From positions 8,144-72,143 of IMG/VR virus record IMGVR_UViG_3300025141_000063: DNA of 64,000 bases; one strand, written 5' to 3'. Of the stretch, positions 1,866-30,714 are shown piece after piece. Source of the stretch: a virus. The stretch's first letter is position 1. Each line of letters starts with the position of its first letter. The translations under genes and the position numbers were made by a program. The notes beneath the pieces were generated by a model. The model saw only the letters and a list, made by a program, of their open reading frames with translations. It searched no databases and was not told the DNA's origin.

Positions 1866-2990
1866 CTATCCTACCTGCACCTTCGAGGACATGGCCAAGG
1901 CCATCGCCTTCGACGAAACCTTCGCGGCAGATACTACCGCAGCACATGAAGCCGGCGTGGGGGTAAGCGCCTGCAGGGCTGTGAGCAAGGGCTGCAGTGC
2001 GGCGTTCAACTCCGTGCCCTTCACGACAGGACTACCACCCCCGGCCAGTTTGAGCGACGTCAGAGTGCCGGAGCTCTTTTCCAGTAGCGCCTCCAGCGCG
2101 CCCCCGTTGGCGCCGAGGTGGATGATGCCGGCGTTCACTTTGAAGCCCGGCGAGTCCGTCTTCACGTCCGTCGCAGCCGAGAGCTTGACCGCCTGGGTAG
2201 TGGACTTGATCTCGACGTCTTCCTTCGCCTGAAGCAAGATCGACTTCTCCGACTTCAGGGACCACGCGCCCTTCAGGACCCAGGACACGCTGCCGTCCTT
2301 TGCGACGTCGAGCTCCACCTGCACCGTCCTCCCGTCCTCCCCCTTGTCGTACACCTTGAGGCTCAGCGCCGAGGACGTCGCGGAATCCCCGTGCTGCCCC
2401 AAGATCAGCTCAGCGAGAGGGTGGGGGTCGTCGGCCTGCTCCTTGGCGAAGATCTTGCACCTGGTGGGCCGGCTGCCGGTGGTCGTAGTCTCGTCCCGAT
2501 CCACCTCCCAGAGGAAGTCCCCTCCGAAGGCACGCAGGTGGTAGCTCTCGCACAGGTCCCGGATGATGTTGTTGATCGGGATGTACATCCGCTGGGCCAG
2601 GGGAGTCGCCTGGATCTGCACCACCCCGCCGCGCCGTACGAACACTGAGTTGCCGTCCCGCGTCCCCAGGTAGATGTCGCCGGGGTTCATGGGGCGACGG
2701 CTGGAGTCGTAGCTGCCCTCCTCGTTCCAGACCATGCCGAACCCGAGGATGAAGGCGCGGTCGCCGATCTCACTGGACTGGCACACCCAACAGGTCGCGC
2801 CCGGCTCCGGCATCACAAACATGCCCTCGCCCTCCGCGTAGTGCACGTAGGGCGCCATCAACGGGATGCGGTCCCACCTGCGGGAGGACGACTGGGACGC
2901 CACGCTGACCGAGTAGCGGGCGACGTTGACGTCGTAGACCACGCCTGTCTCGATGACTGGGGGGCCGAAGACCCCTGTCGCGTGCGACAT
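1866..2990 (-). CDS. Baseplate central spike / gp5-gpV-like protein (N-terminal OB fold, beta-rich C-terminus)
   Basis: GVVYDVN...V.V...IPLMAPY...GMFVMPEPGATCWV resembles the gpV/gp5/VgrG OB-fold signature, followed by short beta-strand repeats. Confidence 0.6.
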   Translation of the reverse strand: MSHATGVFGPPVIETGVVYDVNVARYSVSVASQSSSRRWDRIPLMAPYVHYAEGEGMFVMPEPGATCWVCQSSEIGDRAFILGFGMVWNEEGSYDSSRRPMNPGDIYLGTRDGNSVFVRRGGVVQIQATPLAQRMYIPINNIIRDLCESYHLRAFGGDFLWEVDRDETTTTGSRPTRCKIFAKEQADDPHPLAELILGQHGDSATSSALSLKVYDKGEDGRTVQVELDVAKDGSVSWVLKGAWSLKSEKSILLQAKEDVEIKSTTQAVKLSAATDVKTDSPGFKVNAGIIHLGANGGALEALLEKSSGTLTSLKLAGGGSPVVKGTELNAALQPLLTALQALTPTPASCAAVVSAAKVSSKAMALAMSSKVQVG

Positions 2991-5900
2991 CAGGTGCCCT
3001 TCCGGGCCCAGCCCCTGCGCTTGCGGCGCAGGGCGGGCGGGGTGCGATTGGCCTTGCGTACGCTCTTCAAGATCTTGTCCGTCGTCGCGCTGGGCATCGA
3101 CGGGAGGACCCCGCGCCCCGTCTTGGAGCCCTTGGGGGCGACCCCCTTCAACCCCTTCTCGGGGATGTAGAGGGTGCGGTAGTCCACCGTCACCTCCTCG
3201 CCAGCGTCCAGGTCACGGAGAGCCACCATGAAGCGGGCCTTGCCCTTCTTCTTGACCTCTGCGGTGGGTCGGGGGCTGTGGTTGGTCTTCTTGCCCTCCG
3301 ATGTCTGCATCCCCCGCTCGTCGAAGGCGACGGCGACGGCCTTGCCCTTCTTGACGGGCCCGTCGGTGAAGAAGCCCTTGCCGTGGATCTCGGAGTCTCG
3401 GATGGCTGCCGCCTTCGAGTGCAGGACCGCCTCGGCCGCTCTGGGCGCCTCTGCTCGAGCCTTGGGGTTCGTGATGAACTGGCCCGCCAGCCGAGCCAGC
3501 GCGAGCGCCCCGAGCTCGGACGGAGGCTTCTTGGGCGCCATGCTGTGCAGGGCCGAGAAGTTCCTCGCGTGATCAGGGGAAGACACGAAGGCGTGGAAGG
3601 CGTCCTTGGCTTGGCGGCGGAGGACGGGGTTCTTCTTCACCTGCCCGGCGGCCGAGACCAGCTTCCTGGGGCTGGGAGACCCGAGGAGCGGCAGCACCAG
3701 CTCCCTCAGCTCTCGAGCACGCTTCTCCCTGCCGGAGAGCAGCTTGCCCTGCAGGTGGTCGTCCCAGTCCTTGGCCGTCTTGCCGGACTCGTCGGTGAAG
3801 AAGCCCTTGCCGTGGATCTTGGAAGGAGCGACGGCCGCCTGCTTCTGCAACGGGATCCTGTAAGGCATGACCATCATCTCGTTGTGCAGCTGCTCCTGCA
3901 GCAAGAACTTCGAGGGGAATCGCTGCGGGCGCGCATCGCTCGAAAGGGCGGGCGCCTCCGGGTGCTTCTTTCTCCACGCCGCGTACTGCGCGTGGAGAAT
4001 TTGGTGATGGTCGTCCCCCTCCTTAAAGTCGAACCGAGCGCCAGGGTGCTTGGCCCACGCGGCGGTGCCTTGGTCCGCCGCCAGGATCTTCATGTTCTTC
4101 GCTCCCAACGACCTTCCGGCGCGCAAGCCGGCCTGCATCACCGCTCCCCCGATCCCCTTCTTCCTATGCTCCGGCTTCAAGTACAGGGACGCCCCGTACA
4201 CGTCCCACGTCCCTTTTCGCCTCCGCTTCAAGCTGACAGTGGCGCCGTGAGGCACCGCCCAACTCTTCTGCGTCGCATCACTACCATCGGGCGCCCTGAT
4301 CGGGATAGTGGCGTCGGGAGCCATCACCCCCAGGAAACGACGAGTCTTCACCGGGCCGAAGCTGTAGCCCTCGGGCAACTTCGTCCCGGCAAGCTGCCTC
4401 TCGACGTGCTGCTTCAACACCTTCGGCCGGTCTCGCCACCGCGTCTTCGCCAGCAACTTCGACGCGGTCTTGGACTGCTCCTCGTCCACCTCCTTCTGTG
4501 CGCGACGCCGCATCACCAGGGCGGTCGAGATGCGCTTGCCGCGGACGGCCGCTGTCTTGGGGTTCTTCTGCCCGCGGCGGTAGGCCCCATACGCCAGCGC
4601 TGCCACAGCCAGGGGAACAATGGCGTGCCCCGCCATTGTTCCCGCCCGTCTTCCGATCAGAGCGGCCTTGTCCGGGCCGTGCACCGCCTTGGAGACTGTC
4701 CGCGATGAGTCCTCAAAGTCCACTGGTGCCGTCGCGAAGCCCTCGGGGGTGAGCTTCCCCTTGTACGCCGCGTCGATCAGGTTGCTGCAGGTGTACTCCT
4801 CCCTCTCTCTGGCGCGAATCAGCTTCTTCCCCACCAAGGAGACCGCGGGGTCCGGGGTCAGCATCCCAAGCCCCGTGGCGGCCAGCCCTGTGTTGTCGTA
4901 GTCCTTGCCCACCTGGCGCTCGGCGAAGGTCACCGCACGGCGACGCAGCTTGTCGTTCTTCGGCGCGACGATCTTGTACTTCTTGGTGGCGAGCTGCTTC
5001 CGGATGTCGGTCTTCATGACCCCCTGCCCAATACGGGCCTCAACCATCTCGCCGTCGCCAACGTAGATGCCCGCGTGGGTGAAGCTCCCCTGCAGCGCCT
5101 TCGACGTCGCGACGAACCCGCGGTCGAAGAGCCGCCCTCTGCGCGTGGGCCGCTGGGACTTCTGCGGAGACATGAGCACGATGTCCCCTGGCGCCAGGGC
5201 GTCGAAGTGCTCCTGTGCCATCGCCGTCTTCATCGCCGGGGCCTCGGGTGCTTCAGGGGGCTTCGGAGGCTTCGGGGGCTGTGGCGGCTTGGGCAGCTTG
5301 AAGATCTTGCCGCCGGACTCCACCTGCGCGGCTCCCTGCGGAGCCCCGAACCGGCGGATCTGCTGCCGCAGTGCGGCCGGGGCGTGGACCATGCGCTGAT
5401 CTTGCCCTGCATCGGAGGCGGCAGTCCTCCCTCGTCGAAGCGCGGAGTACGCCTTGTAGGCTGGGTTGCCTCGATACTGCTTCGTCGGGGCGTTCGAGAT
5501 GCCGCCCTTCCGGCGGATGAAGCCGAAGGCCCGCTTCTCCACGGAGGCGGTGACGTCCATCTGGGAAGCCGCCGCAGCGATATTCCTCACCGCCCCGAGC
5601 CGACGGGTGGCGGGCCCGCGCTGTCTGGCCAGGGTAGCCGCGCTCCGCCGCGCGTGGGAGGTCGCCGCGGCCGTGTTGCCCCTAGCCCGCTGCGCGACTG
5701 CGCGGCGGGCATGTCCGTACCCCGTAGGACGGACCAAAGAGACCTTGCCCGTCTGCTGTCTGACCCTCCGTGCCGTAGTTCTGTGCCTGGCGAGGCTCCT
5801 TGCAAGATCTCGCCGCTGAGCAACAGGCCTCATGGCTCCTGCCACGCCAGCTACAAGTCCTGCGCCAGACGCAGATGGGGTGTTGGTAGCCACGTTCGTG

Positions 5901-8077
5901 GCAGCATGGGTCAGCCGAGGCATGCGCCGCGCCGCCGCCCCCCAGAGATCCACGGCCTTGTCGTTGAGGTAACCCGCCTGCTTCTGCATCGAGGCTTCCT
6001 GGGCCTTCCGCTCCCGGCGAGCTCGGAGGAGGCGGTGCACTCCGTACCCTGCCAGCGCCGTCCCACCGATGACTGCCCCGCCGATGGCCATCTGCCTGCC
6101 TGTCGGACGCCATCCGGTGCGAGGAGCTGCGGAAGTCGTTGCCGGGGCAGTCGTCGGAGCGGGACGAGATGCGACCACCTTCTCCGCGACCTGCTTCGCT
6201 ACAGGGTTGGCCGGGCGAGAGGCCACCACCTTCGCAGCAGCCTGCTGAGCCACTGGAGCTGCGGCCGGGGCTACGACCTTCTTCGCAACCGCCTGGGCGG
6301 CGGGAGCAGCCGCGGGGCGGGACGCTACGACCTTCTCTGCCGCCCGCCTCGCTACTGCAGGAGCGGGCTTGGCCGCCGCTTCCTGAGCCTTTGCAGCGGC
6401 AGCGTCCCGCTGCTTCTTGAAGGTAACGGGGTCGATGCCGGCCCTTCGGGCAGGGCGCTCGATGTCCCGGTGATACCTCTGGTTCTCCAGAGTCTGCTTG
6501 TGCCAGAGCATCTCCTCTTTCGGCCTGCCCGTCCTGACCTTCTCCTGGAGGAACTCATGCAACTCCCTGTGCCGGTGCTCCACCGGGCCCGCTCGATTCT
6601 TGAGCAGGTGTCGACTGCGCTGAAGTTGCGCCTTGTCCCACTTATCGCCGCCTTCGCGGACCTTCTTCTCGAGGTCCCGGCTGTCCAGGTACTCCAGCCG
6701 CTTGTACGTCTGCACGTCCTGGCGGGACGGTCCTCCCGGCCTCCACTCCGGCTCAGCAGGTCGCGTGAGCGTCGAGGGATCCCGATTTCGCAGGTACCGG
6801 GGCTTCCCGGCCGTCTTCTCCAGATCGGGGAAGGTACGATCCGTCACCTTCGAGCGTAGAGACTTCGCATACTCCAATAGCCTCCGACGGTTCTCAGGGG
6901 TGTCCTCCATCTTCGCCGTCGCCCATAGAGGGGCCAGGCGATTGGCCGAATCACGCTCGTTCGGGTACAGCTGCACGTCGAAAGCGTCCCCCGCCCTCCG
7001 CATGCGTACGTTCGGCTTGTCGAGCAGCACCTTGTTCGTTCTGGAGGAGACGTCCCCCAAGTGCCTCTCGGGCCCGTCTCTCTTCTCGAACCACTTCTCC
7101 AGCTCACTCCATGGCAAGTCTGGGGTTGGAGGCAGCCTTTCCTGCCCCTTGAAGTGGAAGTCTCGACTCTGGTTGTCTAGCGCCTGCGCGACTCCGCCGA
7201 AGTACTCCGGAACAGGCTTCATGGCGTGATAGCCCCTACCCGCCAGGGCCCCTACTCCTCCCCCAACTCCAGCGCCGATGAGGCCCCGCTTCAGCTTCTT
7301 GCCCTTCTCCGCGCTCGTGGCACCGACGGCGGCTCCCGTCGCTGCACCGAGGCCCGCGCCTACCAAGGTGCGCTTGTGCTTGGACGTCAGCGGCACCCAC
7401 GCCTCCTTCACGGTCTCCCCCGGCTCCTGCAGCACCTTCGCCACCATCTCCTGCACGAGCGCCCACAGCCCCTCACGAGTAGCAACTGCCGGTTGACGTT
7501 CTCCCATGGGTGCGGGGGATTCCGGAAAATCGGTCCGCAGGTGCGAGGCGATTGCACGGACCTGGTCCATGTCGAGCTCAGTGAAGCCTCGGCCCTTGTT
7601 CAGGTTCTGCAGCCACTCCGCCGTATGCCGAGGCGTGCTGTACCGCCGCTCTTTCCACAGCTGTGGATGGAGGCTGTGGGGAACTCCGTGTCGAGTGAAG
7701 AGGGCGATGGTCTGGTCGAGGCCAAACTTGTCGCAGGCCATCTCGAGGTGGATGGTCGGGCGGAAGTCCCGGAGGTACTCCTCGTCGGTACGAGCGTCGA
7801 TGACGTGCCCGAGGTCGTGGTACCCGGACCAGGCCCGGTCCTCCAGGGAGACGGGGACACCCCGCCGGCGCATGGCGAGGTAGATGACCTTGTTGACCTC
7901 GTCCTGCGCGGCGTAGCTGGGCATGTCCTCCAGCACCGTCAGGTCGTAGTCGTACTTCGCCAGCTCCCCCTCCAGGTTCGAGAGCACGAGCTTCCATGCT
8001 CGGCCCTCCTCCGCTTCGGGAGGACGCGCTTCCGCGGCCCCCGTCTTGACGAAGGAGGTCAGGTCGTCAGTACGCAT
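2990..8077 (-). CDS. Multi-domain polyprotein (zincin-like, glycine-zipper modules, permuted NlpC/P60, GNAT, SET), modules delimited by K-x-A
   Basis: Likely start ATG 8077 (MRTDDL) overlapping the RNAP stop. Motifs HDLGH...EMACDKF; PGDIVL...THAGIY...YTCSNL; LYLKPEHRKKGIG; IHGKGFF...NHS...GEEVTVDY. Confidence 0.85.
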   Translation of the reverse strand: MRTDDLTSFVKTGAAEARPPEAEEGRAWKLVLSNLEGELAKYDYDLTVLEDMPSYAAQDEVNKVIYLAMRRRGVPVSLEDRAWSGYHDLGHVIDARTDEEYLRDFRPTIHLEMACDKFGLDQTIALFTRHGVPHSLHPQLWKERRYSTPRHTAEWLQNLNKGRGFTELDMDQVRAIASHLRTDFPESPAPMGERQPAVATREGLWALVQEMVAKVLQEPGETVKEAWVPLTSKHKRTLVGAGLGAATGAAVGATSAEKGKKLKRGLIGAGVGGGVGALAGRGYHAMKPVPEYFGGVAQALDNQSRDFHFKGQERLPPTPDLPWSELEKWFEKRDGPERHLGDVSSRTNKVLLDKPNVRMRRAGDAFDVQLYPNERDSANRLAPLWATAKMEDTPENRRRLLEYAKSLRSKVTDRTFPDLEKTAGKPRYLRNRDPSTLTRPAEPEWRPGGPSRQDVQTYKRLEYLDSRDLEKKVREGGDKWDKAQLQRSRHLLKNRAGPVEHRHRELHEFLQEKVRTGRPKEEMLWHKQTLENQRYHRDIERPARRAGIDPVTFKKQRDAAAAKAQEAAAKPAPAVARRAAEKVVASRPAAAPAAQAVAKKVVAPAAAPVAQQAAAKVVASRPANPVAKQVAEKVVASRPAPTTAPATTSAAPRTGWRPTGRQMAIGGAVIGGTALAGYGVHRLLRARRERKAQEASMQKQAGYLNDKAVDLWGAAARRMPRLTHAATNVATNTPSASGAGLVAGVAGAMRPVAQRRDLARSLARHRTTARRVRQQTGKVSLVRPTGYGHARRAVAQRARGNTAAATSHARRSAATLARQRGPATRRLGAVRNIAAAASQMDVTASVEKRAFGFIRRKGGISNAPTKQYRGNPAYKAYSALRRGRTAASDAGQDQRMVHAPAALRQQIRRFGAPQGAAQVESGGKIFKLPKPPQPPKPPKPPEAPEAPAMKTAMAQEHFDALAPGDIVLMSPQKSQRPTRRGRLFDRGFVATSKALQGSFTHAGIYVGDGEMVEARIGQGVMKTDIRKQLATKKYKIVAPKNDKLRRRAVTFAERQVGKDYDNTGLAATGLGMLTPDPAVSLVGKKLIRAREREEYTCSNLIDAAYKGKLTPEGFATAPVDFEDSSRTVSKAVHGPDKAALIGRRAGTMAGHAIVPLAVAALAYGAYRRGQKNPKTAAVRGKRISTALVMRRRAQKEVDEEQSKTASKLLAKTRWRDRPKVLKQHVERQLAGTKLPEGYSFGPVKTRRFLGVMAPDATIPIRAPDGSDATQKSWAVPHGATVSLKRRRKGTWDVYGASLYLKPEHRKKGIGGAVMQAGLRAGRSLGAKNMKILAADQGTAAWAKHPGARFDFKEGDDHHQILHAQYAAWRKKHPEAPALSSDARPQRFPSKFLLQEQLHNEMMVMPYRIPLQKQAAVAPSKIHGKGFFTDESGKTAKDWDDHLQGKLLSGREKRARELRELVLPLLGSPSPRKLVSAAGQVKKNPVLRRQAKDAFHAFVSSPDHARNFSALHSMAPKKPPSELGALALARLAGQFITNPKARAEAPRAAEAVLHSKAAAIRDSEIHGKGFFTDGPVKKGKAVAVAFDERGMQTSEGKKTNHSPRPTAEVKKKGKARFMVALRDLDAGEEVTVDYRTLYIPEKGLKGVAPKGSKTGRGVLPSMPSATTDKILKSVRKANRTPPALRRKRRGWARKGT
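3361..3819. repeat. Exact 30-nt direct repeat (3361-3390 and 3790-3819) encoding IHGKGFFTD
   Basis: cgtcggtgaagaagcccttgccgtggatct is present twice, with mismatches immediately outside both ends. Confidence 0.95.
6160..6350 (-). repeat. Four imperfect peptide repeats A(E/K/A)KVVA(SRPA) in an Ala/Pro-rich linker
   Basis: AEKVVASRPA / AKKVVAPAA / AAKVVASRPA / AEKVVASRPA in the translation. Confidence 0.8.
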
Positions 8078-11000
8078 AGGGCTTCTTCTTCGTGCCCTTG
8101 CCGAACTCCGTGCCCCTGACAAGGCCGGGGATGGGACTGGTCCCGTGCAGGTCAGACTTCCAGCCCTGCGCGCCGCCTTCCATGAAGGTCTTCTTCAGCT
8201 CGCGGTAGTTGAGGCGGGACATCCAGTCCTCGGAGCCCGCCATGGACACCTCCTGGACACCCTTGAGGATCGGGGTGATCTCTGCCTTCTGCCCCCCGCC
8301 CTTGCCGATGTCCCTGTTCGCCCGCTGCAGCTTCGTGGTCGACACGACGTCGCCCCGAAGGAAGCCGGAGTCGCCGGGCTGCCGGACCGAGGAGAGGTTG
8401 GTGAGGGTGCGGACCACGGTCTCCATGTTCCTCTTCTTCACCCTGCCACCGTAGGCGCCGTGCATCTCGTCGGTGAGGTAGCCCTTGACGCTCTCGATGC
8501 CTGCCACTTCGAGCAGGTGGTGCGGGTTGACGGGCCCGGAGGATAGCGCCTCGCCCAGGCCGACGGGGATCATCATCTTCCCGCGCAGCCCCTCCATCAC
8601 CTTGGCGGTGGGCTTGTTGCGGGCGGGGATGTAGTGGTCCTTCGGCTCCGGGTGGTACTTGCCGAACCGGTCCTTACCCCTGATGTAGACACGCCAGCCG
8701 CCGGCAGGGTCTGCGGATGTCCGCATGATCTCCCCCTTGTACGAGGAGATGGTGGCCTGGCCAGGTACCTTCTTTGTCAGGTGCAGCAGCTGCCCCAGCC
8801 GGGTGAAGGAGTCCGTGCGGTTCGTCTCGCCCTTGCTCACGACGCCGCCGGTGTGGAAGGCGTTCATCGAGAGCTGGGTCGCGGGCTCCCCGATGGCCTG
8901 GGATGCCCAGATGCCGACGTTCGACCCCATGGAGGGCTTCTTCCCGGCCTCGGTCACGCCGTAGCACATGGCGCAGATGCCCTCGGACTGCTCGCACTTC
9001 AACGGGGAGCGCACCAGGACCATCTCGACGCCGGAGTTCTTGATGCGCGTCAGCACCTCGGCGGTCAGCAGGGTCTTCGAGGGGACGTCCCCTCGCTTCA
9101 GCTTCACGGGGGCGGCGGCATACCTGTCGTGGATCTCCGGGTCACCAGTGGACATCAGCACGCCCTGCGTCGTCCCGCAGTCCTGTGACGTGATGATCTG
9201 GTTCATGGTGGCGCTGACCAGGTCCTTGGTCAGCTCGCCCGGTGCCTGGGTGCCCTTGACCTTGCCGAGGGTGCCCATGCGAGCGCCTGACAGGGACGCC
9301 CAGTACTCCGCCGCGCTGAGCCCCTCGGAGTAGCTCTTCTTGATGGGGATGGGGACCGCAGACCCGTTGGGGTCTGTGACGAGCACGGGGGCCAGGGTGA
9401 GCTGCTTGAACTGGTCCCAGTTGCCACGAGCTCCCGACTCCACCATCTCGTACATGCGGTTGCCGGAGCCCTTCATCTTCGCCTGACCCTCGACGTTGAT
9501 GTCCTCGAGGGCAGTCATGTACGCCTCGACCACCGACTCGTCGCGGCTCTTCCCGCCCTTCTGCAGCGCCAGCGCCTTCTTGTCCGCCTTGGCGAAGTGC
9601 TTGTCGCGTATCTCGGGGCGGGACAGGACGTCCTGCAGACTGAAGGAGAAGCCGGTGTCGTAGGTGTACTTGTTGCCGAGCTGGTTCAGCTTGTTGACCG
9701 TGACCGAGAAGCCCTTCGGGTCTCGCTTCGCCATCTTGGTGAGCAGCTTCTCCACCTCCCGGCTCTTCAGCACCAGCGTCTTGTCCGTGAGGACCTTCTG
9801 CCGCTCCAAGGAACTCGAGGGGAAGCAGTTGGAGAGCATCAGCCGGCCCACCGTGGTCTGAACCATCCCGGCCTGCTTGACCAGTGAGGGCTCGGGCAGG
9901 TAGCTCGCCACGCCCTTGGGCAGCCGCCAGGAGCTGGCAGTCTTGGTGATCTGCGAAGAGCCGACGGTGATCACGTCCGAGATGCCCAGCTTGCCCTTCT
10001 TGTACGCCTTCATCGCCTCGTCGGCGGTGCCGAAGGAGCGCTTGCTGTCCTTGCCCCACTTGCTCAGTTGGTACAGCCCGAGCTGTGCCTCCTGCCCGGG
10101 CAGGTTCATCAGGCCACCGGACGACGCGCTGAACAGGTTGTTCGAGGGCACCATCCCTCGCGCTTCCTCGATGGCTTCCTCTGTCAGGGGGACGTAGACC
10201 GAGGTGGTGTCGCCGTCGAAGTCTGCGTTGAACCCGGAGACCACGAGCGGATGGATCTGGATCGCTTTGCCCTTCACCAGCTTCGGGTTGAACGCCATGA
10301 TGCTGTGCTTGTGCAGGACGGGGTCGCGCTTCATCATCACCGGCCGCTTCTTGACGACCTCCTCCAGCGCACGGACTGCGACCGGGTCGTTCTTCTTCAC
10401 CGCCAGCTGCGCCTGCAGAGGGGAGTAGCCGAAGACCTGCACCAGCTCTCGCACGATGAAGGGCTTGTACATCTGCATCGCGGCCTTGCTGGGCAGCCCC
10501 ACCTCGTCCAGGTCCATCGACTGCTCGGGGATGATCGTGGACCGCATGGACAGGTCCATCTTGCGGCCGATCATCTTGCTCTGGAAGTAGCCGGACTTGG
10601 GCTGGGATCCCTTGACCGTCTCGAGCACACCGCGGTAGTGCCTGCCCTGGTACTTCTGCCCGTCCATGGTCAGCGCCTTGAGCCCGTCGTAGAGCTCCTT
10701 GTAGAGCGGCACCTTCTGGCTGGGCGGCAGACCTGTGTCGAAGTCCTTGAGCTTCTGGTTGGTGAGGGAGAGGCCGCGGTAGAGCTGGTTCACATCCGCC
10801 GACGTCGTGGCTCCGCTGTCCAGCACGGAGACCGGCCGGAACTTCGGAGGCATGATCGGAATGTGCTTCCGCATGTAGGCCTCGTCCGGAGACATCCCCG
10901 TCTCCTTGAGGGCCTGGAGGTAGCGGACGCGCCGGCGCAGCTTGCTGAGCTTGTACTTCCGGGCTCCCTTCAACTCCTGCAGCGTCTTCGTCAGCTCCTT

Positions 11001-14000
11001 GTCGATGTCGATCTTCTTCAGGGCGTCCTGGATCGCCTCGGTGCCTGTGCCTGTGCCGATTGTCTTCTCGTGCCCGATGACCTGCTCCATCTCGCCCCGC
11101 TTGAGGTCGAGCAGGGAGGAGATGGCGGTCTCGAACATCGGGTTGGGCAGGGCGACGTCCAGGGTCATGTGTCCCCAGGACTGCTGCGCTGCGTGCTCGG
11201 GGTGGAGCGAGCCGAAGATCTTCTCGTCGAAGATGCCGCCCTTCTCCGCCTTCATGTCCTTGCCTCGGAACATGCGGCCGGGGTCGGTGACGCCCCCGTT
11301 GCTCAGCTTCAACACGTCCTTGTCCACGAGGGGCTTGAGGTGGAGCTGGTTGCCCCGCTTCTCCGTGTCGAGGCCCATCGTCTTCAGGTAGCCCTCGAAC
11401 TTCTCGTAGGTGAACGGGATCTTGGGAGGGGGCAGCGCCTGTCCGGAGTGGAGGGCGTTCCACATGTCGGGGTTGTAGTCCGACTTGAGGGTGAACATCT
11501 CCCGCAGGTTGTGGCGGGCTCCGTGAGCCAGCATGGCGTACACACCCAGGCCGCCCAGGGCCTGTGCGCTGGAGCCGCCGCCGCCCTTGGGGGACATGTC
11601 CAGGCTGTAGGGAGACCCGGTGCCACCGGCGCGGGCGGTCATCTTCTTGGCGACCTTGTGCTTGAGCTTGAGGATGTACTGGTTCCCCACCAGCACCTCG
11701 CCCATCGCCTTGCCCGTGGTCGGGTCGAAGAGGGTCTCGTTGTCGGACAGGCCGTGCTCCTTCAGCTCTCGCTGAATCTCCCGGCCGTAGTCCGCCTTCC
11801 CCTCCTGGGGGAAGTTGTCCACGAGGTAGGGCTTGCCCGTCTTCTCTGAGATCTTCCCGGCCAAGGTCTCCAGCACCTGGCCGACGTTGATGCGGGAGGG
11901 GACGCCGTGGGGGTTCAGGGCGACATGGATCTGCCGACCGTCCTTGGTGGCGGGCATCTCCTTATCCTGCATGACGCGGGAGATGATTCCCTTGTTGCCG
12001 TGCCGGCCGACCAACTTGTCGCCGACCTGCGCCGGCTCCTCCGTCTTGATGTGGACCTCGATCTTCTTCTGGGTCTTGATCACCCGGACGACCCTGCCCT
12101 TGTAGCCCTTGTCCCAGAGCACCGCGCGGTTGGCGTAGTCCTGCACCTTCGAGCGCTTCAGCGCCTGGTAGGCCGCGGCCTCCGACCCGATCTCTCGGAG
12201 CTGCAGCTTGGCGATGAGCAGGTCGCCCTCCTCCACCAGCTCGCCGTCCTTGATGACCCCAGAGGGGTCCAGCTTCGCGGTCTGTGCCGTGGTCACTGTC
12301 CCGGGGGAGACATGCGCCAAGTACTTGTCGCGGCTCATCACCGAGTTGCGGTCGAGCGACGCGTCCACCCGGTACATGTGGAGGCTGGTCAGCATCGTGG
12401 AGGCGGTCTGGGAGATGACCACCCCGTCCTCGTAGTTGTAGCCCTTGAAGGGGACGTAGCCGACCCGAAGGTTCTTGCCGATGGCGAAGGTGCCCTTGTC
12501 GGTGAAGTTGGTGTCCGCCAGGAGCTGTCCCCGCTTCACCCTGTCGCCCACCTTCACGCGCATGTGCGCCTCGATGTAGGCCTCGTCCTGGTTGAGGGGG
12601 AAGTCCTTGTAGACCTGGACCGTGTGGTTGTCCCCGTCGGGATCCTGGATGGTCACAGCGTCCTTCACGATCTGCACCACCTTCCCGTCGACCGGGGCCT
12701 GGTGGGAGTTGAAGGACCCCATGATGTTCTCGAAGGTAGTCCCCGACTCCGTCGCTGTCTGGACCATCGGGGCTTCCCGATGCTTCAGGGAGACCGCCTG
12801 TTCCTGCTGCCGGGAGGCAGTCATGGTCCGGTTGCCCTGGTTGTTGTGCAGGAAGGGGATCAGGTTCGTGGGCAGGGAGTACATCGCCTTGGACGAGAGC
12901 ATCACGTGCGTGACCTCGTTCCACGGGCGCATCATCACCTCGTTGCCCGTGCCGGCGACCGCCACGTTCTTCGGGTCCTTCGGCAGCGGCATCTCCCCGG
13001 ACCACTTCACCTGGTCAGCGAAAGCGATGATGTAGTTCTGGAAGTCCTGCGGCTTGACCTTCTCAATCGACTTGGTCTTCTTGTTGTACAGCTGCACCAG
13101 CAGCCCCAGCCCCTTCTTCTCCACGCCGATGGGGAGCTGCAGGGTGATGCCTGTCTTCGCTCCTTCAGGGGTGGTGATGGGGTCCAGGTAGGTGAGGTGG
13201 CTGTCGTTGATCCGCAGGGCTTCCTTCGGCACCTTCTGCGGGTCGGAGATGGCGCCGGGCCCCATGATCGTGGTTCGCATCTGCCCGGACACGAACTCCA
13301 GGGGGTTCGTCTGGTTGGGGAGCTGCGCCAGCGACGTGGAGAAGAAGGAGTTCAGGGGCTTGCCGAAGACCGCGGGGTTCACGATCTCTCGGACCTTCAT
13401 CTTCTGTCCGTCGAGCCCCTGCCTCAGGCGGCGCCCGATCTCCCCGCGGGAACGGTGCAGCCGGTCAGCGAGGTGGTCCTCGGTGGACAGGATGTCCTTG
13501 AAGGCCAGAGACTCTCGGTCGTCCGGCTTGATGTCCCCTCGTGCCAGGCCGAGCAGCTTCTTCGAGGAGGTCAGCATCGCCTCCCCGTTGACCACGTTGA
13601 AGGACTTGCCCAGCGTGAGCTTGGTGCTGTCCTCCCGGAGCTCCGCGGCAGCCATGGTCTCCCGGACCGCGGTGCGCGCCTCGTCGAGGTCCTTGGCCAC
13701 GTGGCCCGTCGTCCTCTTCAGCACCTTGTTCAGGGACTGGAGCTGCTTCTTGTCGTCCCCGAACTTGCTCACCGAGGCGTCGTAGATGTCCTTGCCCCAC
13801 GCCTTCTTGATCTTGTCGTCGGACTCCCCCATCGCACGGAGCACGGGGTACAGGCCGATGTTCTCCATCGTCCCGAACTTCAGGGTGAAGACCCGCTCCT
13901 TGGGGTTGAAGAAGGACCAGAAGCGGTCGGCCTTGGCGCCGTCCCACTTGTTGATGTTCCACTGGGTGACCAGGCGTCCGGCCTCGTCCTCCCGGTGGTA

Positions 14001-14360
14001 GACGCCCGACTTCAGGCGGAACTGGTTGTCGACCTGCCGCTCCTTGCCGTCGACGATGTACGAGTAGCGGCGGGTGATCTTGGGGACGCGGGCGACGGTG
14101 ATCGTCGAGCGGTCCAGGACATCGCCAGTGGCCTTGTCGATCAGGGAGACTCTGGCCTTGACGGGGACTGCCCAGGTCCCGCCCTGCAGCTTCGCGTGCT
14201 GTTGGGATCTGATGTCGTCGAGCTCTAGGTTGTCGTCGACCCAGACCTTGTCCATCTCGAGCCGTCGGTTCTGCCCCTCGAATGGGAAGTGGTCCCCCAC
14301 GGCTTTCGCCACGCGGGTCTTCATGATCTCGAAGGCACCTTCTGGGTCAAGCTGGGCCAT
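8067..14360 (-). CDS. rpoBC: Phage single-chain DNA-directed RNA polymerase, fused beta and beta' subunits
   Basis: Beta motifs TPEG, GDKLVGRHGNKG, LNPHGVPSRINVGQ, YILKLKH...KMTAR. Beta' motifs GGIFDEKIFG, PPKFRP, RDPVLH, NADFDGD (10209-10229), RSPLKC...GICAMCYG, QAIGEPATQLSMNAFHTGG. Confidence 0.97.
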   Translation of the reverse strand: MAQLDPEGAFEIMKTRVAKAVGDHFPFEGQNRRLEMDKVWVDDNLELDDIRSQQHAKLQGGTWAVPVKARVSLIDKATGDVLDRSTITVARVPKITRRYSYIVDGKERQVDNQFRLKSGVYHREDEAGRLVTQWNINKWDGAKADRFWSFFNPKERVFTLKFGTMENIGLYPVLRAMGESDDKIKKAWGKDIYDASVSKFGDDKKQLQSLNKVLKRTTGHVAKDLDEARTAVRETMAAAELREDSTKLTLGKSFNVVNGEAMLTSSKKLLGLARGDIKPDDRESLAFKDILSTEDHLADRLHRSRGEIGRRLRQGLDGQKMKVREIVNPAVFGKPLNSFFSTSLAQLPNQTNPLEFVSGQMRTTIMGPGAISDPQKVPKEALRINDSHLTYLDPITTPEGAKTGITLQLPIGVEKKGLGLLVQLYNKKTKSIEKVKPQDFQNYIIAFADQVKWSGEMPLPKDPKNVAVAGTGNEVMMRPWNEVTHVMLSSKAMYSLPTNLIPFLHNNQGNRTMTASRQQEQAVSLKHREAPMVQTATESGTTFENIMGSFNSHQAPVDGKVVQIVKDAVTIQDPDGDNHTVQVYKDFPLNQDEAYIEAHMRVKVGDRVKRGQLLADTNFTDKGTFAIGKNLRVGYVPFKGYNYEDGVVISQTASTMLTSLHMYRVDASLDRNSVMSRDKYLAHVSPGTVTTAQTAKLDPSGVIKDGELVEEGDLLIAKLQLREIGSEAAAYQALKRSKVQDYANRAVLWDKGYKGRVVRVIKTQKKIEVHIKTEEPAQVGDKLVGRHGNKGIISRVMQDKEMPATKDGRQIHVALNPHGVPSRINVGQVLETLAGKISEKTGKPYLVDNFPQEGKADYGREIQRELKEHGLSDNETLFDPTTGKAMGEVLVGNQYILKLKHKVAKKMTARAGGTGSPYSLDMSPKGGGGSSAQALGGLGVYAMLAHGARHNLREMFTLKSDYNPDMWNALHSGQALPPPKIPFTYEKFEGYLKTMGLDTEKRGNQLHLKPLVDKDVLKLSNGGVTDPGRMFRGKDMKAEKGGIFDEKIFGSLHPEHAAQQSWGHMTLDVALPNPMFETAISSLLDLKRGEMEQVIGHEKTIGTGTGTEAIQDALKKIDIDKELTKTLQELKGARKYKLSKLRRRVRYLQALKETGMSPDEAYMRKHIPIMPPKFRPVSVLDSGATTSADVNQLYRGLSLTNQKLKDFDTGLPPSQKVPLYKELYDGLKALTMDGQKYQGRHYRGVLETVKGSQPKSGYFQSKMIGRKMDLSMRSTIIPEQSMDLDEVGLPSKAAMQMYKPFIVRELVQVFGYSPLQAQLAVKKNDPVAVRALEEVVKKRPVMMKRDPVLHKHSIMAFNPKLVKGKAIQIHPLVVSGFNADFDGDTTSVYVPLTEEAIEEARGMVPSNNLFSASSGGLMNLPGQEAQLGLYQLSKWGKDSKRSFGTADEAMKAYKKGKLGISDVITVGSSQITKTASSWRLPKGVASYLPEPSLVKQAGMVQTTVGRLMLSNCFPSSSLERQKVLTDKTLVLKSREVEKLLTKMAKRDPKGFSVTVNKLNQLGNKYTYDTGFSFSLQDVLSRPEIRDKHFAKADKKALALQKGGKSRDESVVEAYMTALEDINVEGQAKMKGSGNRMYEMVESGARGNWDQFKQLTLAPVLVTDPNGSAVPIPIKKSYSEGLSAAEYWASLSGARMGTLGKVKGTQAPGELTKDLVSATMNQIITSQDCGTTQGVLMSTGDPEIHDRYAAAPVKLKRGDVPSKTLLTAEVLTRIKNSGVEMVLVRSPLKCEQSEGICAMCYGVTEAGKKPSMGSNVGIWASQAIGEPATQLSMNAFHTGGVVSKGETNRTDSFTRLGQLLHLTKKVPGQATISSYKGEIMRTSADPAGGWRVYIRGKDRFGKYHPEPKDHYIPARNKPTAKVMEGLRGKMMIPVGLGEALSSGPVNPHHLLEVAGIESVKGYLTDEMHGAYGGRVKKRNMETVVRTLTNLSSVRQPGDSGFLRGDVVSTTKLQRANRDIGKGGGQKAEITPILKGVQEVSMAGSEDWMSRLNYRELKKTFMEGGAQGWKSDLHGTSPIPGLVRGTEFGKGTKKKPYAY

Positions 14361-14385
14361 AGATCCTCAGTTGCAGCGGCGGCTC

Positions 14386-14415
14386 ATGATACGGGACCAT
14401 CGCAGTACAGCACAA
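14386..14415 (-). promoter_or_regulatory. Sigma70-like promoter upstream of the RNAP operon
   Basis: TTGTGC (14410-14415), 18-nt spacer, TATCAT (14386-14391) on the minus strand. Confidence 0.5.
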
Positions 14416-14430
14416 TCGCGGAGGATGCCA

Positions 14431-14439
14431 CGGCATAAG
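14431..14439 (+). promoter_or_regulatory. CGGCATAAG motif, candidate phage-specific promoter
   Basis: An identical 9-mer occurs at 19926-19934 in the other divergent intergenic region; both precede plus-strand units. Confidence 0.5.
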
Positions 14440-14481
14440 CAGAGTGTAAGGAACCGCTAATCACCTCTGCAGGAGATCTGA

Positions 14482-14619
14482 ATGTCCGAAAAGGCCCCCC
14501 CGAAGAAGAAGACCGTCAAGGTGGAGAAGCGCGCGTCCACCCGCCGCTTCTCGAACAACATGAAGAAGGCAGTGGGCGGGAAGGGCCCCAAGCCCAAGCC
14601 CTCCTCGGCGAAGAAGTAG
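14482..14619 (+). CDS. Small very basic protein (45 aa)
   Basis: AGGAG RBS at 14471; MSEKAPPKKKTVKVEKRASTRRFSNNMKKAVGGKGPKPKPSSAKK; too short for the ORF track. Confidence 0.7.
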   Translation: MSEKAPPKKKTVKVEKRASTRRFSNNMKKAVGGKGPKPKPSSAKK

Positions 14620-14623
14620 CGAG

Positions 14624-14743
14624 ATGAAGTGGCTGCTGATGGCAGGGCTCTTCTACGGATTCCTCCTCGGCCTCCACGATTTCATCCTGATCGAGAAGAT
14701 CAGAGTGATCCGTGCGATGGAGAAAGAGAAGGACGCGGAGTGA
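14624..14743 (+). CDS. Small membrane protein (39 aa)
   Basis: MKWLLMAGLFYGFLLGLHDFILIEKIRVIRAMEKEKDAE; starts 4 nt after the previous stop and has a GTGA overlap with the next gene. Confidence 0.55.
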   Translation: MKWLLMAGLFYGFLLGLHDFILIEKIRVIRAMEKEKDAE

Positions 14744-15045
14744 GCTACTGCCCCCTACTACCGGGGGTGTGCCGGAACGCAGTCGACTGTGGAGGGTGCA
14801 GCACGTTTGGCGACGTGCTGCACCCCTACGCAGACTCGCTGTTCTGGGTGTGCCCCCTCTGCCTTACCCCAAAGAGAACGCCCAGCAGCTACACCCTGCT
14901 GGGTCACTACCAGGAGATCGACTGCGACCTCTGCGAGAAGGTCTCGTCCCTGTGCCAGGCGGCGCTGCCGGAGGACGTGATGCTGCGAACCGACTGGAAG
15001 GATCTGTGCCAGCAGATCCGGGAGGACTACGATGGCGATGGATGA
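14740..15045 (+). CDS. Cys-rich zinc-finger protein
   Basis: GTG start overlapping the upstream TGA; CGGC, CPLC, CDLC motifs. Confidence 0.65.
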   Translation: MSYCPLLPGVCRNAVDCGGCSTFGDVLHPYADSLFWVCPLCLTPKRTPSSYTLLGHYQEIDCDLCEKVSSLCQAALPEDVMLRTDWKDLCQQIREDYDGDG

Positions 15046-15397
15046 CACCTGCGCGTTCTGCCAAGGGCAGTTCGACTTGAAGGAAACGGATCTCCTCGAA
15101 GTCAGTCACGGGATGTGCGACCTAACAGGGGACGGAGAGATTGAGTTCATCCCCGACAACATCCCCGAGTACATCCACCTCACCTGTGCCTTGCGGTACT
15201 TCAACTCTCAGGAGGAAGACGCCGTCCGGGAGGTGATCCGAGAGGAGATGTTCATGGACGGCATGGCCGAGATCAACAACTACCTGGGGGGCATGGAGAA
15301 GATGGCCCAGCGAGCGGAAGAAGCGGAGGTGTACGAGCCTCCCGCTCCTGCCCCCCGGCCTACTCGTACTCGGGGCGGGAGGTGGCGGGGCCGATGA
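15032..15397 (+). CDS. Hypothetical protein with a CxxC/HxxC zinc site
   Basis: CAFC...HLTC; acidic; overlaps the upstream stop. Confidence 0.65.
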   Translation: MAMDDTCAFCQGQFDLKETDLLEVSHGMCDLTGDGEIEFIPDNIPEYIHLTCALRYFNSQEEDAVREVIREEMFMDGMAEINNYLGGMEKMAQRAEEAEVYEPPAPAPRPTRTRGGRWRGR

Positions 15398-17407
15398 TCA
15401 GACGATGGCCCGTCCGGGGTCTCGTCGCGGCGGCTTCTTCGAGGGGAGCGGGGACTGCTGGGCATCCAGCGGGTCCCGCGTCTCCTTGGTGCCCTGCATG
15501 ATCTGCAACACTAAGGAGTAGAAGTGCGGTTGCGTCGCCTTCATCTTCTGCATCGTGGCGTAGGCGTCCGGGGGCTTGGTCTTGAGCTGCTTCCGCAGCT
15601 CATTGGCCACCCTCTTCGCCACGTAGTGCACGTCCATCCCTGTCTCGGGGTGCGCCGTCAGCTGCGACGACGCGTCCCCAGGGATGCCGGTCGTCGGAGA
15701 GGAGTTCCCGTTCTCAGGGTAGAGCTTGGCTCCCGCCGGCCCCTCGACCGCGCCGCCTCCACCTTCCCCGCCTCCGGGCGACGGGAGTTGGGGCTGGTTC
15801 GGTTGCGGGCCGGGGGCGCCGCCCACCATGTCCGCTTGGGAGGCCTGCATGTACAGCTGCATGACCTGCTGCGCCTCACCTTGGCCCACAGCAGCCGCCA
15901 CCTGCGCCCTGCGCTGGTTCTCAGACTGCGCCCTGGCCTCAGAGCCAAGGAGGATACGCTCGTGCTCGTAGTCCTCGTTGAGTTCGCGCAGGAAGGTGTG
16001 GTCGGAGACCTTGCCTGCCTGGTTGGCCTGGAAGTAGATCATCGTGCGCTGCAGGTCGTCCGCCATCTTGAAGCGACGGAACTTCTTGGTGACCTTCGGC
16101 CAGCCCAGCCACGCACCAATGGAGTCGAACACCCAGTCCGTGAGGCCCTGGATGTCGGCGCGGTAGTTGATGAACTCGTTCTCCAGGTTCCGCATGGAGA
16201 CCTGGGTGCCGGAGTAGCCGAGGCCGCCGAAGATGAACTCCTGCGGCACGTGCATACCCGCGACGATGTGCTCGGCCCAGACGCGGTGCTCCTGGTGGAG
16301 AATCATCGCTCGGCCCTGGCCGCCCACGACCTGGTGGCCCACGGGGAGGGGGAGGATCGGGATGTAGTTCGGGTCTCGCCTCCAGCGCTCGATCTCCTCC
16401 TCCATCTGCCCCTTCCACCCCGCCAGCGGCACCGTGGTGTACGGATCGCTGGTGCCGGAGCCGGGCTGGGGGAAGAGCATGCGGAGCGGGACGATGTGCT
16501 CGCGGGCGATGGCCTCCTGCCCCTTCTTGAGGATCTGCAGGTAGTAGGAGTCCTTGAGCACCGGCAGGATGCGGGACAGGCCCCAGCCCTTGTCGTTGCC
16601 GTTGCCCGAGATGGAGGGCCGCCGCATGTGGAAGAGCTGCCCCGGCGCGAAGCGGAGGCCCATCTTCTTCTGGGCCGCCTCGACGAAGACGTTCGGGACG
16701 TCCTCCTGGATGTGGTTCCTACCGATCACCAGTTGGCTCCGCGTGCGCGGGCTCATCTGGTAGTAGTAGCGGCAGGAGCCCGTCTCCTCGTTCACGTCGA
16801 TGGAGATGCGCTCGGGGTCCCAACGGACCAGCCCCAGCTTGTAGGGGCTCCTCTGCCACACGTCGATCGGCTTGGCGTTGCCGATGCGTCGGCAGCTCGG
16901 GCAGGTGAGCCGGTACTTGAGCTCGCGCCACTTGTAGTGGGGCCTCAACTTCTTCGCCGGCTTCATCACCTTGCAGTGGTTGCACTGCAGGAACTTCACG
17001 AAGGGGTAGTTGATCGAGGTGAAGCTGTTGCCGTAACATTGATAGTCTAGGCCCGTCTCCACCTGGAAGCTGCGGAACTTCAGGACCTGGTCCTTCAGGT
17101 ACTTGTACTTGCCTGCCACCGCGGCGTGTGGGCTCTCGAACACGAGGTCCGTGATCGGGTACGACGCCATCTTGTAGACGACGGCGTTCACCAGCGGGTT
17201 GGTGAAGAAGTAGTACCGGCACCAGCGGAAGAGCTTCTTCTGCGAGGAGGGCAGGTAGGTGTGGGCGCCATCGAAGAAGGGGCTCGGGTAGGGAACGCCC
17301 GCTCGACCCGACGCACCGAAGAACCCGCTGCGCAGGTTTGCGAAGCCGCTTCCTCCGGTGGACGTCAGCCCGTACTGGGGCAGCCCAAAGTCGAAACCCT
17401 CAGCCAT
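15398..17407 (-). CDS. Phage portal protein with zinc-ribbon insert
   Basis: RYYFFTNPLVNAVVYKM, FHMRRP...GWGLSRILP, GMHVPQEFIFG pattern resembles portals; CNHC/CPSC insert; Gly/Pro/Gln-rich tail. Confidence 0.75.
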   Translation of the reverse strand: MAEGFDFGLPQYGLTSTGGSGFANLRSGFFGASGRAGVPYPSPFFDGAHTYLPSSQKKLFRWCRYYFFTNPLVNAVVYKMASYPITDLVFESPHAAVAGKYKYLKDQVLKFRSFQVETGLDYQCYGNSFTSINYPFVKFLQCNHCKVMKPAKKLRPHYKWRELKYRLTCPSCRRIGNAKPIDVWQRSPYKLGLVRWDPERISIDVNEETGSCRYYYQMSPRTRSQLVIGRNHIQEDVPNVFVEAAQKKMGLRFAPGQLFHMRRPSISGNGNDKGWGLSRILPVLKDSYYLQILKKGQEAIAREHIVPLRMLFPQPGSGTSDPYTTVPLAGWKGQMEEEIERWRRDPNYIPILPLPVGHQVVGGQGRAMILHQEHRVWAEHIVAGMHVPQEFIFGGLGYSGTQVSMRNLENEFINYRADIQGLTDWVFDSIGAWLGWPKVTKKFRRFKMADDLQRTMIYFQANQAGKVSDHTFLRELNEDYEHERILLGSEARAQSENQRRAQVAAAVGQGEAQQVMQLYMQASQADMVGGAPGPQPNQPQLPSPGGGEGGGGAVEGPAGAKLYPENGNSSPTTGIPGDASSQLTAHPETGMDVHYVAKRVANELRKQLKTKPPDAYATMQKMKATQPHFYSLVLQIMQGTKETRDPLDAQQSPLPSKKPPRRDPGRAIV

Positions 17408-20368: not shown

Positions 20369-20819
20369 CAGCATCAACGTCGGCGGCCTGATCATGACCG
20401 CCCGCAAGAAGAGGTTCCGCAGCACGAGGGAAGCCGCTGCCGCGGTGAAGCTCACCGACGCTCGCGGCACCCGGAGTCTCTCCGGTGAGGGCCTGCGGAA
20501 GTACGAGAAGAGCCTCAGTCTCCCGTCTGCGAATGTGCTTAGCGCGCTGATCCAGGGCTGGGGGATGGGTGGAGAGGAGGCCGAGACCCTGTGGAACGCC
20601 GTGCACGTCGCTCGGGAGCGCCGCGATGGCTTCGAGCCGAGGAAGGCCGCCCTCAAGGGGGAGAACATGGAGGCCGCCGTCGCCAGTGCGGTGGGTGAGA
20701 TGGTCGGCGAGTGCCGCATCCTCGTCGAGGGGATGGTCGACGACGTCGACGACCAGGAAGCGTTCCTGGAGGAGGTCCGCGTCCTCTCGAACCGCATCAT
20801 CAGGAGCCACTTTCGGTGA
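20361..20819 (+). CDS. XRE-type helix-turn-helix protein
   Basis: G.LI..ARKK...STREAA...LSGEGLRKYEKSLSLPS resembles an XRE HTH. Confidence 0.65.
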   Translation: MSDSINVGGLIMTARKKRFRSTREAAAAVKLTDARGTRSLSGEGLRKYEKSLSLPSANVLSALIQGWGMGGEEAETLWNAVHVARERRDGFEPRKAALKGENMEAAVASAVGEMVGECRILVEGMVDDVDDQEAFLEEVRVLSNRIIRSHFR

Positions 20820-23764: not shown

Positions 23765-23810
23765 CACCGATCCCCGGGTCACAATCCGCCGCAGCGCAGT
23801 CCTGAAAGGC

Positions 23811-24101: not shown

Positions 24102-24102
24102 G

Positions 24103-24357: not shown

Positions 24358-24367
24358 GGGGGTTCTC

Positions 24368-28106: not shown

Positions 28107-28127
28107 TCTAATCAACCACTGAGACCT

Positions 28128-28154
28128 CGGGGCCCGCGTCTGCGGGCCCCGTTT
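28128..28154 (+). terminator. GC-rich hairpin, probable intrinsic terminator or attenuator
   Basis: cggggcccgc-gtct-gcgggccccg (10-bp stem) followed by ttt. Confidence 0.6.
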
Positions 28155-28164
28155 GGGGGGACGC

Positions 28165-30180: not shown

Positions 30181-30183
30181 GAA

Positions 30184-30712: not shown

Positions 30713-30714
30713 TC

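Follow-up and report, generated by a model that had tools for sequence, protein, structure and literature searches.

The 64,000-nucleotide stretch of DNA analysed here, the window, comprises bases 8144–72143 of the 72,143-bp IMG/VR virus record IMGVR_UViG_3300025141_000063; the estimated completeness of that record is 38%, so the whole genome should be near 190 kb. On its minus strand, at 8067–14360, the window encodes a fused beta-beta' RNA polymerase (RNAP) as one open reading frame (ORF) of 2097 amino acids (aa), which begins with ATG and ends with a stop codon at 8067–8069; the identification draws on the ORF list, Pfam matches and fused homologues. Coordinates, strand, start and size are exactly those given in the initial annotation, an account of the locus made from the letters of the sequence without database searches. 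The GC content at third codon positions is 0.93, a coding-strand signature in DNA of ~65% GC. The ORF holds the whole catalytic core as one chain, with a near-complete beta subunit joined directly to beta'.

Eight Pfam domains lie collinear along the chain, Rpb2_3, Rpb2_6 and Rpb2_7 at residues 347–965 followed by Rpb1_1 to Rpb1_5 at residues 1131–2001 (Rpb2_6 with E 7.4e-61, Rpb1_2 with E 1.1e-25), in the order of beta then beta' motifs that had been read from the sequence. As reference for a residue map, Salmonella beta (1342 aa) and beta' (1407 aa) were added to a 58-row alignment; we assume that their numbering equals that of E. coli. The RNAP is 26.7% identical to these two chains over 1985 aligned positions. 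The alignment, together with matches to chains of the Protein Data Bank (PDB), delimits a beta-like module of residues 1–1003 (11352–14360, minus strand) and a beta'-like module of residues 1004–2097 (8070–11351, minus strand). The junction falls after residue 1003, whose codon at 11352–11354 lies inside the interval 11347–11360 where a seamless join had been claimed, and only the 18 residues from beta 1342 to beta' 17 are unmatched. The peptide quoted in support of that claim corresponds to residues 992–1011 (11328–11387, minus strand), as placed by the alignment and by conservation within the phage family described below; all 23 family sequences compared share G996, K1001, G1003, L1008 and P1010. 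A sequence search of PDB chains matched bacterial beta' at E 1.9e-115 over RNAP residues 1105–2069 and the 1100-aa beta chain 8syi_C at E 1.1e-88, aligned over 70–1053, nearly end to end. For chains from archaea and eukaryotes the values are no better than ~1e-28, against 1e-88 for bacterial beta, so the view of the protein as a cell-like enzyme on a single polypeptide holds.

The catalytic NADFDGD motif occupies residues 1378–1384 (10209–10229, minus strand), with A1379–D1384 invariant in the family alignment, and the beta segment GDK..GRHGNKG, at residues 780–791, is kept in the family consensus. Also present are the bridge helix, the trigger loop in both its halves, the lid and the clamp-helix region. 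At the second beta' zinc site, whose cysteines we take to be E. coli 814, 888, 895 and 898, Cys occupies all four columns in 26/26 phage rows and 32/32 bacterial rows. The clamp helices, rudder and flap tip have diverged far from the bacterial consensus. At the catalytic residues the 23 family members show no variation, an observation far beyond chance, and the gene is almost certainly functional.

The chain had been described as compact relative to the ~2750 aa of E. coli beta plus beta'. As a statement of size this is right (2097 versus 2749 aa); the difference consists mostly of absent enterobacterial inserts, with a single core loss. Compared with Salmonella, the RNAP lacks beta 1–26, 231–346, 938–1047 and 1125–1178 and beta' 68–94, 146–176, 943–1128 and 1363–1404, plus a few gaps of 8–14 residues. 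Four of the absent stretches, 466 aa together, are enterobacterial inserts, those of beta being 231–346, 938–1047 and 1125–1178; we take the four to be SI1, SI2, beta-i11 and SI3 of the E. coli nomenclature. Enterobacterial RNAP inserts are also missing from many bacteria, and the best PDB beta match, 8syi_C, is itself only 1100 aa. By this alignment, most of the compactness is the absence of lineage-specific enterobacterial inserts, and among the core modules only the N-terminal zinc-binding domain of beta' (beta' 68–94) is gone. The alignment columns place the site of this deletion after residue 1054 (11196–11201, minus strand) and mark it as family-wide: the columns of the domain hold 0–5 residues and no Cys in 26/26 phage rows, versus 31 residues and four Cys in 32/32 bacteria. 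The loss amounts to a natural experiment on that module. At the rifampicin-pocket positions (within residues 339–368, window ~13257–13346), presumably equivalent to E. coli beta 516, 526 and 531, the RNAP reads N, G and T. All 26 family rows have T at position 531 and G, N or M at 526, and 20 of the 26 lack D at 516. Because the sampled bacteria are also variable at these positions, insensitivity of the family RNAP to rifampicin is only a guess.

A search of 5.8 billion proteins returned at least 120 fused full-length homologues, 2031–2824 aa long and 42–100% identical to the RNAP, on contigs of up to 213 kb; both Rpb2_6 and Rpb1_2 are present in 120/120 of those listed. Intein or homing-endonuclease domains occur in the longer homologues (P0012, P0013, P0037, P0052 and others, to 2824 aa). 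When IMG/VR was scanned with a profile, 553 of 597 candidate stretches were confirmed as encoding relatives. Counts of family loci given below rest on the 80 loci kept; in 76 of them coverage runs at minimum from residue 32 to residue 1966, and the other four are truncated by the end of their contig. The RNAP is a single open frame of 2034–2594 aa in 13/13 IMG/VR records, and 15/15 large genomes (11 of them at least 90% complete) have one RNAP locus. The phages that carry it are a widespread and almost uncharacterised family of tailed phages of roughly 165–200 kb, abundant in metagenomes though few cultured members were found: Salmonella phage Arash and Vibrio phages D69, D148 and D181 are the only ones. 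Two contigs with a family fused RNAP (L116 and L117; 162 kb and 204 kb) occur in metagenome-assembled genomes (MAGs) labelled Leptolyngbyaceae and Bacteroidales; these are probably phage contigs binned with bacteria.

In prokaryotic genomes, scanned at one per species, we found 78 true rpoB-rpoC loci from many phyla, with a flat 26–30% identity to the RNAP. The initial annotation had proposed a phylogeny with cellular enzymes as a check. Our tree comprised 26 phage and 32 bacterial rows (13 phylum labels) over 1999 columns and was inferred under LG+G4 with a short search and Shimodaira–Hasegawa-like approximate likelihood ratio (SH-aLRT) support. The 32 bacteria were picked from 53 complete loci and three Bacteroidota, spreading the phyla, and all were among the closest matches to the query; neither an outgroup nor any Helicobacter or Wolbachia sequence was included. 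A branch with SH-aLRT 100 and a length of 0.46+0.95 substitutions per site splits all phage rows from all bacterial rows, and the RNAP accordingly nests in no sampled bacterial clade. Among the bacterial loci, four from MAGs labelled Pseudomonadales or Gammaproteobacteria (L148, L163, L169 and L173) group with Patescibacteria-type candidate-phyla rows, and their taxon labels may be wrong. The best NCBIfam matches are models of bacterial fused beta/beta' chains, below their cut-offs (NF007172, 617 versus 5372; NF011417, 565 versus 4632), as are the equivalogs for rpoC (TIGR02386, 562 versus 963.5) and rpoB (NF001616, 412 versus 896). The bacterial RpoBC fusions covered by NF007172/PRK09603 and NF011417/PRK14844, which we take to be the Helicobacter and Wolbachia types, resemble the RNAP in joining the C-terminus of beta to the N-terminus of beta'. 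They differ in length, at ~2840–2890 aa, and a further difference is the absence of the beta' zinc-binding domain from the phage family. Bacterial RpoBC fusions work with host alpha, omega and sigma.

Upstream of the RNAP gene and on the same strand lies a 669-aa ORF (15398–17407, minus strand) that sequence, fold and synteny identify as the portal protein, in keeping with the portal noted nearby at the outset. By tblastn it is 30–31% identical to the portal genes of Arash and D69; its model has a mean predicted local distance difference test (pLDDT) score of 65.7, and the top Foldseek matches in the PDB are all phage portals (T4 gp20, E 1.7e-7). A portal homologue is found upstream, on the same strand, in 60 of the 68 family loci with enough flank. 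On the other side, a profile match and synteny mark a 374-aa gp5/VgrG-like central spike protein at 1866–2990 (minus strand); a profile built from 20 spike homologues matches the T4 gp5 beta-helix at E 2e-6. Homologues of this spike lie downstream of the RNAP in 67 of the 80 family loci, of a 694-aa protein in 64 and of a 297-aa protein in 43, and the spike gene directly follows the RNAP gene in most relatives. The description of the RNAP as encoded among head genes is therefore borne out by the adjacent portal and is otherwise too narrow, as the conserved downstream neighbour is a tail spike; a virion structural module fits the setting better.

In the window itself, RNAP and spike are separated by the gene for a large multidomain protein, the polyprotein of the initial annotation, which runs on the minus strand over 2990–8077 (ATG start, 1695 aa) or 2990–8122 (TTG start, 1710 aa) and is recognised by weak domain matches. 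The probable ATG start at 8077 overlaps the RNAP stop codon (8067–8069) by 11 nt, an arrangement compatible with the translational coupling that had been suggested; the polyprotein is clade-specific, however, since it lies between RNAP and spike in only 5/80 family loci. In the 1710-aa ORF, Pfam matches to GNAT and SET are just over the cut-off, and those to Gly-zipper and peptidase C92/NlpC-P60 fall below it. The protein may be an injected multi-effector protein.

The window had been noted to contain no sigma gene. None was found on its contig either, where a Sigma70_r2 search gave 0 matches and the one Sigma70_r4 match (13.3 bits, under the cut-off) lies within a helicase ORF outside the window. 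As a property of the phage, however, the absence is most likely an artefact of truncation. A sigma-70-type protein of roughly 250 aa is encoded in 17/19 family records and in 10/11 of those at least 90% complete; the two records without it are the window's own contig and G014 (91% complete). A profile of 14 family sigmas matches regions 2–4 of SigA, RpoS and SigB with E 1.8e-17, and Pfam recognises Sigma70_r3 in 13/14 of them, Sigma70_r4 in 6/14 and Sigma70_r2 in 2/14. Sigma70_r2 alone was rejected as a detector, as it picked up only 5/13 records, three of them over the cut-off, and a family-specific query was required. Arash gp10 is an orthologue of the family sigma. The relative G001, with an RNAP 79% identical to that of the window, shows gene-by-gene colinearity with the whole window. 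From the G001 counterpart of the last window gene it is another ~1.6 kb to the G001 sigma gene (65287–66012), and window and contig both stop 235 bases after their own last gene. This colinearity and the position of the contig end indicate that the missing sigma reflects truncation, and the window phage's own sigma gene most likely sits just past the right end of the contig.

A complex of RNAP residues 1000–1420 with the G001 sigma was modelled alongside three controls and scored 0.62, versus 0.01 for the best control. A score of 0.62 was reached by 58/80 solved complexes and 2/110 mismatched pairs, counts that are rough because different alignments were used here. Runs share at least 45% of contacts, and the pLDDT of the partner is at least 67. 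The confident interface comprises RNAP residues 1191–1226 plus 1028–1033; the former are the beta' clamp-helix (coiled-coil) region (10683–10790, minus strand), which maps to beta' 245–330 and is the predicted sigma docking site. As sigma-core complexes have already been solved, the pass may reflect likeness to those complexes rather than binding of this copy. A scan of 7900–15500 for the sigma-70 consensus found two sites versus 0.6 expected, neither of them upstream of the RNAP start.

Searches for the remaining core subunits were negative. PF01193 (alpha, RNA_pol_L) and PF01192 (omega, Rpb6) each matched in 0/16 records, with controls positive in 14/14 genomes, and neither had a match on the window's contig. 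PF01000 (RNA_pol_A_bac) matched in 0/5 and 0/13 records (0/18 in total), a set that did not include the window's contig. The reported absence of alpha and omega genes from the window is thus upheld as far as RNA_pol_L and Rpb6 reach. Going by gene content, independence from host alpha is plausible.

Among the cultured relatives, gp206 and gp216 of Arash (OQ632216) are together homologous to the RNAP over its full length, with 32% and 25% identity and E = 0 by tblastn, and the matches to the Arash-type RNAP cover window RNAP residues 53–1467 and 1503–2089. Arash and the Vibrio phages share with the window the same beta-beta' junction and an upstream portal, and all fall in one clade with SH-aLRT 100. 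Arash, D69, D148 and D181 have the same sigma family as the window's relatives and lack alpha. In Arash and D69, however, the chain is cut at about residue 1470–1500 into pieces of 1525–1527 aa and 606–609 aa, whereas the window RNAP is uninterrupted and has 18 extra residues (1473–1490) precisely where the others are cut. The pieces of the Arash-type RNAP are separated by inserted genes, which in D148 and D181 include homing endonucleases. Compared across these phages, RNAP residue ~1470–1500 looks like a hot spot for mobile-element insertion. The accessible text of the Arash paper annotates 'beta' and 'beta'' subunits with no discussion of a fusion and calls the phage an orphan singleton (PMC10585845).

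The gene order portal-RNAP-spike is kept across the family (portal upstream in 60/68 loci, spike downstream in 67/80). Proteomic data for Arash virions purified on a sucrose gradient, as far as the accessible part of that report gives them (PMC10585845), list the large RNAP piece Gp206 with 128 unique peptides and 3516 spectra, the highest count of all, and the small piece Gp216 with 40 unique peptides and 1210 spectra, the fifth-highest. The sigma factor Gp10 is represented by 24 unique peptides and 467 spectra and the portal Gp204 by 32 unique peptides and 877 spectra (PMC10585845). Expressed per residue, using the same published table and coding-sequence lengths, these values are ~2.3 spectra for Gp206, 2.0 for Gp216, 2.0 for Gp10 and 1.5 for the portal. 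On gene order and the Arash proteomics, the RNAP is probably packaged in the virion.

We favour a reading in which the phage owns a single-chain core of bacterial type that uses a phage sigma factor and is loaded into the particle and injected, and we assign it a probability of roughly 60%. In this scheme the fused core would bind the phage sigma through the usual contact between the beta' clamp helices and sigma region 2, and the sigma would direct the core to phage promoters. The covalent beta-beta' link would replace the assembly role of the alpha dimer, and loading and injection of the enzyme would make transcription independent of host RNAP. A number of observations weigh against this scheme. 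The clamp helices and flap tip are strongly diverged from the bacterial consensus; the contig of the window has no sigma gene, so the pairing is extrapolated here from relatives, and no copy was detected in G014 at 91% completeness; and the complex model is a prediction that uses a relative's sigma, not the window phage's own. Among 17 upstream regions, taken from 13 intergenic regions of the contig, no 8–10-mer stands out other than ribosome-binding-like GGAG contexts. The tree was flagged for long branches meeting, in addition to its lack of an outgroup and its short LG+G4 search. The phage could lack an alpha gene and yet draw on host alpha, and natural bacterial beta-beta' fusions still use alpha. 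The virion data come from Arash, with its split RNAP, and from no fully fused member, and the Arash preparation held 116 proteins including ribonucleotide reductases, for which the authors, in the accessible text, allow carry-over of abundant infection proteins (PMC10585845).

The same observations bear on the alternatives. A captured bacterial rpoB-rpoC operon, fused after a recent transfer and carried as an auxiliary gene that nests in a bacterial clade, would explain the overall bacterial homology and the best NCBIfam matches to bacterial fused equivalogs. Those matches lie far under their cut-offs, however; the identity to 78 bacterial rpoBC loci of many phyla is flat; the phage clade is split from 32/32 bacteria by the long, fully supported branch; and the zinc-binding domain deletion is common to 26/26 family rows, which together make recent capture very improbable. 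Another possibility is a hybrid enzyme, in which the fused chain assembles on a host alpha dimer, perhaps with omega, and is cell-like but not alpha-independent. In favour of this, the chain comprises beta and beta' of bacterial type in nearly complete form and aligns to Salmonella over 1985 positions, no phage substitute for alpha was identified, and Helicobacter-type fused RpoBC enzymes keep alpha. Arguing the other way, the 42 C-terminal residues of beta' are absent from the RNAP, and jumbo-phage RNAPs are described, in the accessible parts of two reviews, as lacking alpha and omega and as binding no host subunits stably (PMC7598289, PMC13282480). The Arash paper, in its accessible text, mentions no host proteins and is silent either way on host alpha (PMC10585845). 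We regard host-alpha assembly as unlikely, though a serious candidate.

The last alternative concerns packaging: the RNAP could be a non-virion enzyme, made after infection from host-transcribed genes and devoted to middle or late transcription only, with the Arash virion signal due to carry-over. Such carry-over is named by the authors of the Arash work, in the text accessible to us, for a preparation purified by sucrose gradient only, with metabolic enzymes among its 116 proteins (PMC10585845), and many spectra are to be expected from a long protein. In the window, moreover, ORFs on the opposite strand part the RNAP from the portal, and the RNAP has its own upstream region. Yet Gp206, Gp216 and Gp10, with 24–128 unique peptides, resemble the portal (32) and not the two ribonucleotide reductases, which have 2 and 11 in the accessible table (PMC10585845), and their spectra per residue are ~2.3, 2.0 and 2.0 versus 1.5 for the portal. 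The conserved order portal-RNAP-spike and the single RNAP locus per genome also speak for a packaged enzyme, and we consider a purely intracellular role rather unlikely.

Among known phage enzymes, the RNAPs of the phiKZ/AR9 type resemble the window family as phage beta/beta' homologues that lack alpha and omega and of which one set is virion-packaged, according to the accessible parts of reviews. They consist of 4–5 chains, with two sets per genome and no recognisable sigma, and are far more diverged; the window family has one chain, one locus (15/15 genomes) and a sigma-70-type partner (17/19 records). The enzyme of Yersinia phage YerA41, in the style related to phiKZ/AR9, matches the RNAP at only E 1e-17 to 7e-25. 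YerA41 was also rejected as a closer relative, its genes for the beta' N-terminal part, the beta' C-terminal part and beta being separate and reordered, without the family sigma; so was Rhizobium phage RHph_TM30, which has only a beta'-like gene and lacks the family sigma. The moraphages carry no RNAP genes (PMC12619734). The N4 virion RNAP, the large virion RNAP of the crAss-like phage phi14:2 and the tape-measure-fused RNAP of P23-45 represent the same proposed strategy, a particle-carried enzyme for early transcription. As described in the accessible literature, these are either unrelated (T7-like) or extremely divergent two-barrel enzymes, and none is a near-complete bacterial-type beta plus beta'.

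The RNAP is thus a fused, and probably sigma-dependent, variant of the multisubunit-type phage RNAP. Unlike the reviewed jumbo phages, the family combines a near-complete bacterial-type fused core with its own sigma-70-type factor. In the accessible text of two reviews, jumbo phages that encode an RNAP lack sigma, alpha and omega homologues and phages that encode a sigma lack an RNAP (PMC7598289, PMC13282480); a further paper reports likewise for its group 1 (PMC7824862). The searchable literature, which leaves subscription journals and supplements outside, does not describe any phage RNAP that joins beta to beta' and is accompanied by its own sigma, the nearest being the Arash paper. We tentatively extend the favoured reading to a self-sufficient two-protein machine, in which a beta-beta' chain without the zinc-binding domain and a compact sigma would act with neither alpha nor omega, carried in the virion, in hundreds of environmental phage genomes of ~190 kb; we think this extension somewhat more apt to fail than to hold. 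If true, it would be the simplest known sigma-dependent RNAP holoenzyme and would contradict the rule, as stated in the accessible reviews, that phages with a multisubunit RNAP lack sigma and those with sigma lack an RNAP. A pair that works without alpha and omega would bear on how the large subunits assemble and on the purpose of the alpha scaffold, and would supply an orthogonal, bacterial-type transcription system encoded by just two genes.

Other features of the locus and contig were also recorded. The spacer between portal and RNAP (14361–15397) carries small plus-strand ORFs at 14482–15397 and leaves ~120 nt upstream of the RNAP start; their products are two short peptides, one basic (45 aa) and one hydrophobic (39 aa), a Cys-rich product of 138 aa and a 121-aa product that is conserved in G001 with 57% identity. 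Pfam and PHROGs searches of the 669-, 289-, 374-, 694-, 297- and 154-aa neighbours found nothing. The conserved 694-aa protein, encoded two genes downstream of the RNAP in relatives, gave no Foldseek match in the PDB at E 0.001, from a model with a mean pLDDT of 68 and a predicted template modelling score of 0.34. Five giant ORFs of 1836, 1565, 761, 2142 and 920 aa lie at 38347–43857, 44515–49212, 49213–51498, 51793–58221 and 59154–61916, all on the minus strand. They have no family match in Pfam and PHROGs (Pfam only for the 1565- and 2142-aa ORFs) except a sub-threshold PKD in the 1565-aa ORF; all are conserved in G001 at 48–70% identity, and they are presumably tail or fibre proteins.

The large terminase subunit is encoded further along the contig (PHROG 675, E 8.4e-58). 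Adjoining it is an SNF2-family helicase (L203) at contig 2100–3686 (minus strand), outside the window, which is 44% identical to Arash gp217. In Arash, gp217 follows the RNAP, and its product is represented by 38 unique peptides in virions, according to the accessible table (PMC10585845). As an obligatory partner of the RNAP this helicase was rejected, being present in only 5/16 family records at E 1e-10. A T7-like replication block spans window 20711–32159 (plus strand) and contig 4017–6630 (plus strand), with an SNF2/ResIII helicase, UDG, a DnaB-like helicase, a DnaG-type primase, a family A DNA polymerase and a RecA-like ATPase. A C5 cytosine methylase and RNase HII are encoded on the contig as well.

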